A stretch of DNA of 64,000 bases from IMG/VR virus record IMGVR_UViG_2841454579_000002, positions 11,039-75,038 of that record. One strand, given 5' to 3'. Shown here piece after piece: positions 15,564 to 17,328 of the stretch. Numbering within the stretch: position 1 is the first letter of the stretch; every line of letters starts with the position of its first letter. The DNA comes from a virus (taxonomy: Duplodnaviria; Caudoviricetes). The notes under the pieces were generated by a model. It did not search any database, was not told the origin of the DNA, and saw nothing but the letters and a program-made list of their open reading frames with translations. Both the position numbers and the translations under genes were made by a program.

Positions 15564-15586
15564 CCCAGAACAGTGACTTGTCACTG
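15564..15586 (-). promoter_or_regulatory. Candidate vRNAP early promoter 4
   Basis: Template-strand CCC-AGAA-CAGTGAC-TT-GTCACTG. Confidence 0.7.
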
Positions 15587-15587
15587 A

Positions 15588-15677
15588 TTAAATGTGGGTG
15601 ATTACCCATTGGCCGGCGATAAGACACGCACAGCCGAAGAACACAGTTAAGTGCCAGTCTTTAAGCTGAAATTTCAT
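15588..15677 (-). CDS. Early 29-aa hydrophobic peptide (MKFQLKDWHLTVFFGCACLIAGQWVITHI)
   Basis: Manual translation; GGAG ribosome-binding site. Confidence 0.55.
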   Translation of the reverse strand: MKFQLKDWHLTVFFGCACLIAGQWVITHI

Positions 15678-15693
15678 TGGTACTCCAGATAGC

Positions 15694-15715
15694 AAAAAGG
15701 CTACCGAAGTAGCCT
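15694..15715 (-). terminator. UUCG-loop terminator
   Basis: AGGCTAC-TTCG-GTAGCCT-TTTT. Confidence 0.8.
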
Positions 15716-15726
15716 ATTTAATGATG

Positions 15727-16017
15727 TTAAGCAGTCTGTTTCTGCTGGTCTTTAGACTTGAATCCCAGACCAACCTGCTTATCTTCAACCAAGTTCAGAT
15801 TGATTTTGAACTCAACATCACCTAACTGATCTTTTGCTTCAATGAGCAATGCGTGAATTTCACGGCGCAGTGACAATGGAATGCCACCAATGCGTGAAGT
15901 GGAACCGTCAGCCAACACCACATCCACATTCAGAAATGCATCAGAACGATTAGTCTGAGCACGTGATTGCAGTGGAGAAGCTGAACGAAGGTTTGCACGG
16001 TTTGCTAAAGTTGCCAT
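15727..16017 (-). CDS. ssDNA-binding RNAPII cofactor (N4 gp2-like)
   Basis: AFLNVDVV...RIGGIPL resembles N4 gp2 (WLNIGYV...TGIPL); early position; GAGG ribosome-binding site. Confidence 0.7.
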   Translation of the reverse strand: MATLANRANLRSASPLQSRAQTNRSDAFLNVDVVLADGSTSRIGGIPLSLRREIHALLIEAKDQLGDVEFKINLNLVEDKQVGLGFKSKDQQKQTA

Positions 16018-16072
16018 AGGTCTATTCCTCATAGTTGGCATTAATGTCGGATTAAGAGACCATTCTCCGAAT

Positions 16073-16094
16073 CCCACACTGGCAACTTGTTGCC
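16073..16094 (-). promoter_or_regulatory. Candidate vRNAP early promoter 3
   Basis: Template-strand CCC-ACACT-GGCAAC-TT-GTTGCC. Confidence 0.75.
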
Positions 16095-16355
16095 CTAAAG
16101 TTCGGCCTGAAGAGAGGAAAAATTGAAATGTTTTGACAGGTGCTTAATACATCCATAGGCTGAGCGCCAGCGAAGCCCAGTGTAGTGTCTTGTTGTGTAA
16201 TGTAAGTGTAGTTATAGAGATCTATATATAACTATACAGAGAGTATTTATATATAAATATTAAGGGTATATGGCGTAGCCATATACCCGTTATATATTAA
16301 GTAATAGAGAGTAATAATTAAGTAAGTATTAATTACTTCATAGGTGCAATTTGAG

Positions 16356-16383
16356 AAAAAATAAAGACTCCCGAAGGAGTCTT
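16356..16383 (-). terminator. UUCG-loop terminator
   Basis: AAGACTCC-TTCG-GGAGTCTT-TATTTTTT. Confidence 0.8.
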
Positions 16384-16384
16384 A

Positions 16385-16660
16385 TTAGTGAATGAGTACA
16401 GGACATTCAGGTTTTGGTGGTACTAATGGTGGACGGAAGTGACTTAGCGGACTAACCATAAATCTACTACCATCTTCCCATGTATCACACGTATTCATGT
16501 CACCGTGGTAAGTGACACCCTGTTTGTCTGTGAACTCGAATGAGACAACCCCATCCTCATGTACATAACAAATGGTAATGCGACTGAATAACTCTAAGTG
16601 ACTACCACTTAATACGTTAGCTTCAAGCCACAATGCAATCTCAACAGATTGATCTTTCAT
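16385..16660 (-). CDS. Early hypothetical protein
   Basis: ORF between a candidate promoter and a terminator; GAGG ribosome-binding site. Confidence 0.7.
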   Translation of the reverse strand: MKDQSVEIALWLEANVLSGSHLELFSRITICYVHEDGVVSFEFTDKQGVTYHGDMNTCDTWEDGSRFMVSPLSHFRPPLVPPKPECPVLIH

Positions 16661-16704
16661 AACCATTCCTCTTAGGTTATTAACAGATGCACACTATTGT
16701 ACAT

Positions 16705-16725
16705 CCACTAAGGCAACTTGTTGCC
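16705..16725 (-). promoter_or_regulatory. Candidate vRNAP early promoter 2
   Basis: Template-strand CC-ACTAA-GGCAAC-TT-GTTGCC. Confidence 0.75.
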
Positions 16726-16965
16726 AATGTATCGGTGATGTATCGGAATAGGGATAGAGATAGATAGGATACAGGTTATGGGAGTTATTCATTAATCACC
16801 TCATATTCCTAACCCTATCAATCCCTATAAGGAGATCTCAGTGAAGATGAGGCATTACCCTAGTTACAGACTGATGCTGTCACAGAGGCTTACAGGACGT
16901 AATAAAGAGTAATACAGAAAGCTGTCTTAGCACTGAGTGTAGAGTGTAGTGAGTGTAGGAGAATT

Positions 16966-16984
16966 AAAGGGAGCCGAAGCTCCC
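16966..16984 (-). terminator. UUCG-loop terminator
   Basis: GGGAGC-TTCG-GCTCCC-TTT. Confidence 0.7.
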
Positions 16985-16989
16985 GATGA

Positions 16990-17277
16990 TTAGTTCATTA
17001 ACTGAGGTAGGACAGTATCAACCTCATAGTCAGAGATTTCCTGTTCCTTACGTTGTGACATGCGTTTGTTCAACGCTTCAATACGGCGTTCAGTTTCATA
17101 CTTGTTGAACTTACGGCGAACTTCACGTTCACTGTTACGGTTCTCAGTATGAGCGTCCAAGTCTTTGTAGAAGGACTGAGTATAACCATCCACTGATTTA
17201 GTACCTTGGTCCAAGTTACGCAGGATACGTAATACGATGGTGAATGGTGCTAACAGGGTTTGTAGGATAACTTGCAT
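16990..17277 (-). CDS. First early gene, hypothetical (N4 gp1 position)
   Basis: 95-aa ORF with a GAGG ribosome-binding site; first gene after the putative genome end. Confidence 0.75.
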   Translation of the reverse strand: MQVILQTLLAPFTIVLRILRNLDQGTKSVDGYTQSFYKDLDAHTENRNSEREVRRKFNKYETERRIEALNKRMSQRKEQEISDYEVDTVLPQLMN

Positions 17278-17307
17278 GGTAGATTCCTCTATAGTTGTGG
17301 GCTTATT

Positions 17308-17328
17308 CCCACGGTAGCAACTTGTTGC
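17308..17328 (-). promoter_or_regulatory. Candidate vRNAP early promoter 1
   Basis: Template-strand CCC-ACGGTA-GCAAC-TT-GTTGC. Confidence 0.7.

Follow-up and report, generated by a model that had tools for sequence, protein, structure and literature searches.

The 64,000-nucleotide (nt) stretch analysed here (the window; positions 11,039 to 75,038 of IMG/VR record IMGVR_UViG_2841454579_000002) corresponds to G000:C1:2229466-2293465 of a marine-type bacterial chromosome and consists almost wholly of an N4-like phage. The element is an N4-like (Schitoviridae) prophage. All of its genes to the left of 17330 lie on the minus strand, so that the plus strand is their template. At the right-hand end of this leftward block, four short hairpins with a C-TT-G apex precede a series of small genes, and we consider it likely that these four elements are early promoters of the integrated phage, read by its virion RNA polymerase (vRNAP) when phage DNA enters a cell. 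They are given below in the direction of transcription, with template sequences taken from the plus strand.

17308 to 17328, minus strand: candidate early promoter 4, the first in the direction of transcription; template CCC-ACGGTA-GCAAC-TT-GTTGC, with CCC at 17308-17310 and the hairpin GCAAC-TT-GTTGC at 17317-17328; predicted start opposite 17310 (or 17309).
16705 to 16725, minus strand: candidate early promoter 3; template CC-ACTAA-GGCAAC-TT-GTTGCC, with CC at 16705-16706 and the hairpin at 16712-16725; predicted start opposite 16706 (or 16705).
16073 to 16094, minus strand: candidate early promoter 2; template CCC-ACACT-GGCAAC-TT-GTTGCC, with CCC at 16073-16075 and the hairpin at 16081-16094; predicted start opposite 16075 (or 16074).
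15564 to 15586, minus strand: candidate early promoter 1; template CCC-AGAA-CAGTGAC-TT-GTCACTG, with CCC at 15564-15566 and the hairpin CAGTGAC-TT-GTCACTG at 15571-15586; predicted start opposite 15566 (or 15565).

The sites, their consensus and their spacing are as the original prediction had described. The pattern CCA-N4-RG-NN-AC-TT-GT has four matches in the 64-kb window, all on the plus strand and within a span of 1.8 kb, and the distance from the last C to TT is exactly 11 nt at all four. In shuffled sequence CCAN4RGNNACTTGT had a mean count of 0.08, and none of 100 shuffles reached four or more. AC-TT-GT is the centre of a perfect inverted repeat at every site, and the CC, always with a template A at -1 and always 11 nt from TT, fits the predicted G start by sequence. 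Over the whole 5.0-Mb genome the motif is at chance level (7 matches, against 8 and 10 for a reversed control pattern); four of these seven fall within the 1.8 kb, and the prophage holds no other copies. Among hairpins whose apex is C-TT-G and whose stem has 4 base pairs (bp) or more, stems of 5-7 bp were found only at the four sites, where they measure 5, 6, 6 and 7 bp. Because the flanks outside the motif differ among the copies, the shared letters point to conservation of the motif and not to a recent duplication.

Each copy heads a gene unit of its own, as had also been claimed. The hairpin is followed after 33-58 nt by a GAGGAA-type ribosome-binding site (RBS) and an ATG on the minus strand (at 17277, 16666, 16017 and 15520), and a terminator stands after each open reading frame (ORF). 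The units contain the following features.

16990 to 17277, minus strand: early ORF of 95 amino acids (aa) with a GAGGAA RBS; no family match.
16969 to 16984, minus strand: intrinsic terminator, GGGAGC-UUCG-GCUCCC followed by a U-rich tail.
16385 to 16666, minus strand: early ORF of 93 aa; no family match.
16364 to 16383, minus strand: intrinsic terminator with a UUCG loop and a U-run.
15727 to 16017, minus strand: E2, the third early ORF, 96 aa from the ATG at 16017; orthologues in related loci.
15698 to 15715, minus strand: intrinsic terminator with a UUCG loop and a U-run.
15392 to 15520, minus strand: early ORF of 42 aa from the ATG at 15520, with a GAGGAA RBS.
15373 to 15386, minus strand: intrinsic terminator with a UUCG loop and a U-run.

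A terminator scan returned seven sites, none of them at the four hairpins, and the unit terminators are separate elements. Sites resembling sigma-70 promoters (-35 and -10 hexamers with 16-18 nt spacing) are depleted in 14300-17700, with one found against 7.5 expected, and this single site does not coincide with any of the four hairpins. The arrangement of the units also bears on the idea that the hairpins function as part of longer transcripts from upstream, where they would serve for RNA processing, stabilisation or attenuation. They would fold equally well in RNA, and they would be 5' untranslated sequence if transcription read through from upstream. However, the hairpins stand downstream of the preceding unit's strong terminator and have no U-run after them, only a short non-coding stretch and then the oppositely oriented terminase genes lie upstream of the first one, and the fixed spacing to a coding-strand T-GG is promoter-like. 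We regard a role in RNA as very improbable.

No solved structure matched the product of E2 significantly (best E 1.3), and isolated phages gave no match; that it serves as a Drc/gp2-like cofactor is a guess. An extended translation-start context, approximately ACTATGAGGAA, is common to early genes of this phage (15526-15537, 16027-16038 and 17285-17296) and of the related locus L020 (3966, 4289 and 5857). In addition, an 11-12 bp hairpin, GGGTATATGGC-GTA-GCCATATACCC, lies at 16264-16288 within ~270 nt of AT-rich, non-coding DNA that separates early units, and similar hairpins of the form GGGATATAGGGT-TAC/GTA-ACCCTATATCCC occur in the early regions of relatives (L035:4270-4296 and L036:1641-1667). 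This element could serve as a terminator in both directions, as an origin or in packaging.

The genes around the early units identify the type of phage and the presumed reader of the four sites.

46559 to 57133, plus strand: vRNAP of 3524 aa, the presumed reader of the four promoters.
14379 to 15290, minus strand: RNAPII small subunit (N4 gp15-like), its likely start being the ATG near 15290.
12657 to 13850, minus strand: RNAPII large subunit (RNAPII-L; N4 gp16-like).

The 3524-aa ORF matches the vRNAPs of schitoviruses (~23% identity) and the N4 vRNAP structures, and the equivalents of N4 K437, R440, D559, K670 and D951, which are T7-like catalytic residues, are conserved. The genes for both subunits of the T7-like RNAPII lie directly downstream of the four units with terminase on the other side, which is the arrangement of the N4 'left end'. 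Terminase and virion genes run rightward from 17435, and the N4-type left and right ends are joined at ~17330-17435. A homopolymer run is found tens of nt upstream of the first early promoter, both here (7 G at 17343-17349) and in L020 (12 C at 2931-2942, in that locus's own orientation), at the junction where N4-type genome ends would lie.

The prophage is bounded by 28-bp direct repeats at both junctions (C1:2218378 and C1:2294135), ~75.8 kb apart. The left repeat (L195:6913) is the 3' end of a tRNA-Leu(GAG) gene, and the right repeat (L196:670) lies 670 nt past the end of the window. A tyrosine integrase gene (L195:6963..8231) adjoins the tRNA-Leu gene, a helix-turn-helix (HTH) protein is also encoded in the element, and host genes were found beyond both ends, on the right from ~1 kb past the window. 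Integrated N4-like proviruses are known from data mining, and the available portion of that report makes no mention of hairpins or promoters (PMC10654107). The family-A DNA polymerase of the prophage is encoded by two ORFs with an HNH/NUMOD4 endonuclease ORF between them (L195:15273-17973), and a transposase of the IS110 family lies between the ThyX and ligase genes (L195:11290-12324).

N4 vRNAP is the standard example of DNA hairpin recognition by an RNA polymerase, and its specificity is ascribed to an exceptional GNA mini-hairpin together with a few base contacts. C-TT-G is a sequence that forms a two-residue mini-loop, as known from the nuclear magnetic resonance literature. As a check of the method, the same hairpin scan was run on the first 4.7 kb of N4. 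It returned exactly three hairpins, upstream of gp1, gp2 and gp15; each has GAA or GGA as its template loop and a GG 11 nt away from the centre of that loop. The original prediction was right to contrast the four sites with the GNA loop of N4. Like these N4 promoters (P1-P3, read by the vRNAP gp50), the four sites are template-strand hairpins with stems of 5-7 bp, placed upstream of the first genes at the end that carries the RNAPII genes; they come in several copies with a conserved apex and variable stems, and a spacer (4-6 nt here) leads to a template CC with a purine (A here) at -1. The apex itself is different. In N4 a 3-nt GNA loop is centred at -11 within GC-GNA-GC, whereas here a TT dinucleotide closed by C:G and flanked by A:T pairs (AAC-TT-GTT) is centred at -12/-13, with a conserved G at -7 and a distance of 12.5 nt from the loop centre to the first G.

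According to published work on N4 (PMC4496689), the N4 enzyme reads template A or G at -11, G at -10, G at -8 and C at +1, with a purine at -1, and promoters of this type are restricted to the first-injected end of the genome. At the four sites, template positions -8 to -10 are N, N and A; N4's GNA loop, its -10 G and its -8 G are all missing, and no N4-read base is kept there. That every such position differs would imply a polymerase whose specificity has changed along with its promoters. The spacing can also be compared with that of phage LUZ7, whose early transcripts, in the accessible text of the mapping study by ONT-cappable-seq, start with G 13-14 nt downstream of the hairpin centre (PMC9163698). 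The four sites resemble the LUZ7 early promoters in that a hairpin is followed by G, with two Gs at 12.5 and 13.5 nt as the predicted starts; they are unlike them in that LUZ7 has a conserved 3-nt loop and its starts are measured. Finally, GCGNAGC and GCGNNAGC (including a GTTA loop) are extraordinarily stable forms of mini-hairpin DNA, for which the N4 promoter is cited as an instance, in a review whose available text does not contain CTTG (PMC13037366). Such DNA carries a sheared G-A pair on two G-C pairs, unlike the apex AAC-TT-GTT found here.

Comparison with related phages provided further evidence. No match was obtained when the early region and the vRNAP gene were compared by megablast and blastn with a phage collection that may lack records close to this genome, single-protein locus searches with vRNAP and RNAPII-L found nothing, and the vRNAP query detected a genome of the same family in none of the 400 other genomes searched. 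Alignment queries, on the other hand, recovered 175 related loci, which span ~8 kb around RNAPII. There is no close isolate, the best RNAPII-L identity being 44% (Salmonella phage S5), and a protein search placed relatives of 58-71% identity in marine gammaproteobacterial genomes and metagenomes. The nearest usable loci are L020, from an Alteromonas genome, and the viral contigs L035-L039, with RNAPII-L 51-59% identical. Each of these six loci has 1 to 6 hairpins in the same early region, 22 in total. On the coding strand they read NNGC-TA(A/T/C)C-GCNN, or have -TGTC- or -TGGC- as the loop, and a spacer and T-GG follow; the template apex is GC-GNNA-GC, including the form GC-G(T/A)TA-GC, and the loop centre is 12.5 nt from the first G, as at the four sites here.

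The 22 sites of the relatives and the 4 of this phage could be aligned without gaps. In this alignment G25 and G26 are invariant, T24 is present in at least 90% of the rows, and all 26 sequences keep the four core pairs, each of which occurs as 2-4 pair types through compensatory changes. The covariation score was 0.648, compared with 0.179 for shuffled sequences (none of 500 as high) and at most 0.246 when pairing partners were slid. Covariation of the stems, which had been proposed from the four copies, is thus real, but it is limited to two stem types in the window and becomes strong once the relatives' 22 copies are added. The four sites share with the GNNA hairpins their position in the early region, the 12.5-nt spacing, an apex of four letters and covarying stems. 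They differ in the apex pair (columns 11 and 14), which forms a Watson-Crick C:G in all 4 copies of this phage but in none of the other 22; in the relatives the loop is closed by G..A, of the sheared-pair type, on C:G, and C10, T11, C14 and G15 are invariant in all 22 copies. With a GNA apex in N4 and GNNA in the near relatives, both use mini-hairpins of the sheared G-A type, which this phage does not.

These data also speak to the idea that the palindromes are operators for a dimeric DNA-binding protein, such as the repressor or immunity protein of a temperate phage. In favour are the perfect 14-bp symmetry of GGCAAC-TT-GTTGCC, which is how operators usually look, the integrase and HTH protein that the prophage encodes, and the location of the palindromes ahead of early genes. 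At site 1, however, three of six half-site positions are changed while the symmetry is perfect, so that structure and not sequence has been kept. Moreover, the conserved CC-A flank is one-sided and at a fixed distance, all sites have a single orientation, and the counterparts in relatives, with asymmetric 4-nt loops and freely covarying stems, would be unfit as sequence-specific operators. We give an operator function little credence.

A GNNA-type apex was also seen elsewhere in the prophage. A conserved imperfect hairpin, GCAGCC...GC-TACC-GC...GGCTGC, lies at 13875-13900 on the minus strand, ~40 nt upstream of the ATG of the RNAPII large subunit. Its apex is that of the relatives (template GGTA), and the outer stem recurs unchanged at the corresponding place in L036 (4597-4622).

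A second family of hairpins, which the original prediction had not noticed, occurs in the window.

15325 to 15340, 12588 to 12603, 12290 to 12305, 4849 to 4864, 60251 to 60266 and 63471 to 63486, minus strand: intergenic hairpins of the form GCYRCCG-TT-CGGYRGC.

There are 6 copies against 0.29 expected, all on the early or middle coding strand, with GC-rich 7-bp stems, and at the four sites checked a G lies ~14.5 nt downstream of the loop centre. The copy at 15325 is located between the fourth early terminator and the ATG of the RNAPII small subunit. Its counterpart in L020, L035 and L036 is CTGC(A/G)C-TCC-G(T/C)GCAG, with template GGA and thus an N4-like GC-GGA-GC apex. By analogy with LUZ7, the second family probably represents middle promoters, read by RNAPII, of the LUZ7 hairpin type. 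An AT-rich box, GATTTTNAG, was evaluated as a middle-promoter motif and occurs at chance level.

The existence of this family raises another explanation, that the C-TT-G hairpins serve RNAPII, or the host RNA polymerase with a factor, and that the vRNAP reads the GC-rich family, or both families. The excess of coding-strand copies just given is in its favour, as is the copy at 15325, which stands where the third hairpin promoter of N4 is found, ahead of gp15, and which in L020, L035 and L036 is replaced by a hairpin with N4's own GC-GGA-GC template apex. Yet copies of the second family are scattered through ~30 kb of middle genes, whereas vRNAP promoters of the N4 type are confined to the first-injected end, as stated in the part of the N4 study available (PMC4496689), and its architecture fits that of the LUZ7 middle promoters, which in the accessible text have a GC-rich stem of at least 6 bp and a G ~15 nt downstream (PMC9163698). 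As the sole vRNAP promoters, these hairpins would leave the first four genes without one, and the fixed-distance T-GG across the 26 aligned copies marks the C-TT-G/GNNA family and not this one. We therefore judge such an assignment unlikely.

The vRNAP of this phage is ~31% identical to those of L020 and L036 in its central domain. The original prediction had proposed an alignment of the hairpin-binding residues with N4 mini-vRNAP; in an alignment of 10 sequences the catalytic residues align, and the contact residues fall in gap-rich regions. An orthogonal promoter specificity of this vRNAP is plausible in view of the changed promoter letters.

The C-TT-G apex also occurs in other phages. With tblastn, homologues of E2 were detected in 19 distinct loci, 16 of which have a lineage-specific hairpin 35-80 nt upstream. 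Classified by eye, the template loops in these 16 loci are GNA (7), GNNA (4), G-NN-T (2), ACA (1) and C-TT-G (2). The two C-TT-G loci, L117/L118 and L050, belong to two other uncultured N4-like lineages and have two copies each, with covarying stems; the copies in L117/L118 are GCCAGC-AA-GCTGGC-AATAGTGG and ACCGGC-AA-GCCGGT-AATTGTGG. As in this phage, AA within a C..G closure separates the two stem halves on the coding strand and T-GG follows, all of it upstream of an E2 orthologue. Unlike this phage, these loci have a spacing of 13.5, one nt longer, and GC-rich stems (GCCAGC, ACCGGC, GCCGC). The C-TT-G apex is thus rare but not unique to this phage, since at least two further lineages have it. 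A scan for the exact motif CCANNNNGGCAACTTGTTGCC gave 11 viral contigs, none of them N4-like by tblastn, and 76 genome contigs with one match each, where ~70 are expected by chance by our own estimate.

For a wider view, the most frequent hairpin family upstream of RNAPII-L was recorded in 113 distinct loci with at least 3 kb of upstream sequence, and the counts were compared with those for the wrong strand and for shuffled sequence.

GNA loop: 43 real, 1 wrong strand, 0 shuffled.
GNNA loop: 6 real, 0 wrong strand, 0 shuffled.
Other 4-nt loops: 2 real, 1 wrong strand, 0 shuffled.
Other 3-nt loops: 2 real, 18 wrong strand, 1 shuffled.
2-nt loop (at least 3 copies): 19 real, 24 wrong strand, 12 shuffled.
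No family of at least 3 copies: 41 real, 69 wrong strand, 100 shuffled.

The 2-nt-loop class does not rise above the noise seen in the controls; we therefore discounted it as evidence and, on the same ground, set aside C-TT-G in L023 and L087.

An unrooted RNAPII-L tree was built from 28 rows chosen for a clear promoter family, one short row and all other loci being omitted. It contains the group (L117 [C-TT-G], (this phage [C-TT-G], (L020, L035, L036 [GNNA]))), which is supported at 100/97 and 99/97. The group nests in a clade of phages that otherwise use GNNA, G-NN-T or GNA, and L050 falls in a different RNAPII-L clade. The tree weakly suggests that a GNNA background gave rise to C-TT-G, by two origins or by one origin and a reversal, and that the apex had a further origin elsewhere; because it is an unrooted tree of one gene from mosaic phages, it gives the direction of the apex change only weakly. 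We propose, tentatively and as a possibility that we rate somewhat below even, that this vRNAP represents a specificity class of its own, defined by a TT mini-loop with a Watson-Crick C:G pair as opposed to the GNA and GNNA loops with a sheared G-A pair, and that the switch occurred inside the GNNA-using marine clade and at least once more elsewhere.

Several points weigh against reading the four hairpins as early promoters for the vRNAP. Only two stem types are present in the window, and the core GCAAC is common to three sites, so that covariation among the four copies is real but thin. Their folding energies as single-stranded DNA are ordinary (-4.6, -3.8, -4.1 and -2.3 kcal/mol; z from -2.2 to -0.35, the latter at site 4); since the energy model cannot score a 2-nt loop, thermodynamics adds little in either direction. 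A covariance model built from the relatives' 22 promoters retrieved none of the four sites: it gave 12 hits in the window at E of at most 10, the best at 0.14 and none on the hairpins. Homology with the relatives' family is thus indicated by position and geometry, and not by apex sequence. It is synteny alone that places the first-injected end near the promoters, in an element that is a prophage. The vRNAP might read the second family instead of, or besides, the C-TT-G sites. Lastly, N4 K114, R119, W129, K267/268, K849/850, D901 and R904 lie in regions that cannot be aligned with any of the 9 other vRNAPs, not even with that of PA26, which belongs to Litunavirus like LIT1, a phage with a reported 3-nt loop; specificity is thus not readable from the protein sequence.

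Taken together, the promoter reading is supported by the N4-like context, the position at the left end, the fixed spacing of CC/GG, the template purine at -1 and the covarying hairpins at the same places in relatives, all of them features of sequence. The four hairpins are very probably a rare, derived apex of a known kind of vRNAP promoter. In the mechanism that we propose for these early promoters, negative supercoiling on entry would extrude the palindrome, with its AT-rich centre, as a hairpin on the template (plus) strand, which would present a compact TT loop closed by C:G. The vRNAP would bind the apex of the hairpin and the junction of stem and single strand, the single-stranded spacer of 4-6 nt would act as a ruler, and RNA synthesis would begin 12-13 nt away from the centre of the loop, with a G opposite the CC. 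The outcome would be four monocistronic early transcripts, each ending at its UUCG terminator. After induction, no lytic cycle can be started from early promoters that depend on a virion enzyme, and there must be another entry into the programme.

In the literature searched on non-GNA loops of vRNAP promoters, we did not find promoter apexes of the GNNA or C-TT-G type described. The sequences compared here suggest a graded natural series from GNA through GNNA to C-TT-G, which we likewise did not find described there. Promoters that keep the geometry of N4's and replace every base read by its enzyme show how the recognition of hairpins evolves. This phage with C-TT-G, its close relatives with GNNA and more distant ones with GNA offer natural pairs of enzyme and promoter for mapping the determinants of specificity, and the same graded pairs would be useful for building orthogonal tools for transcription from single-stranded DNA. 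If the reading is true, N4-like phages hold a natural series of mutually orthogonal pairs of single-strand promoter and polymerase. The C-TT-G pair would then belong to a temperate phage that could use these early promoters only when it infects a cell, and not when it is induced.

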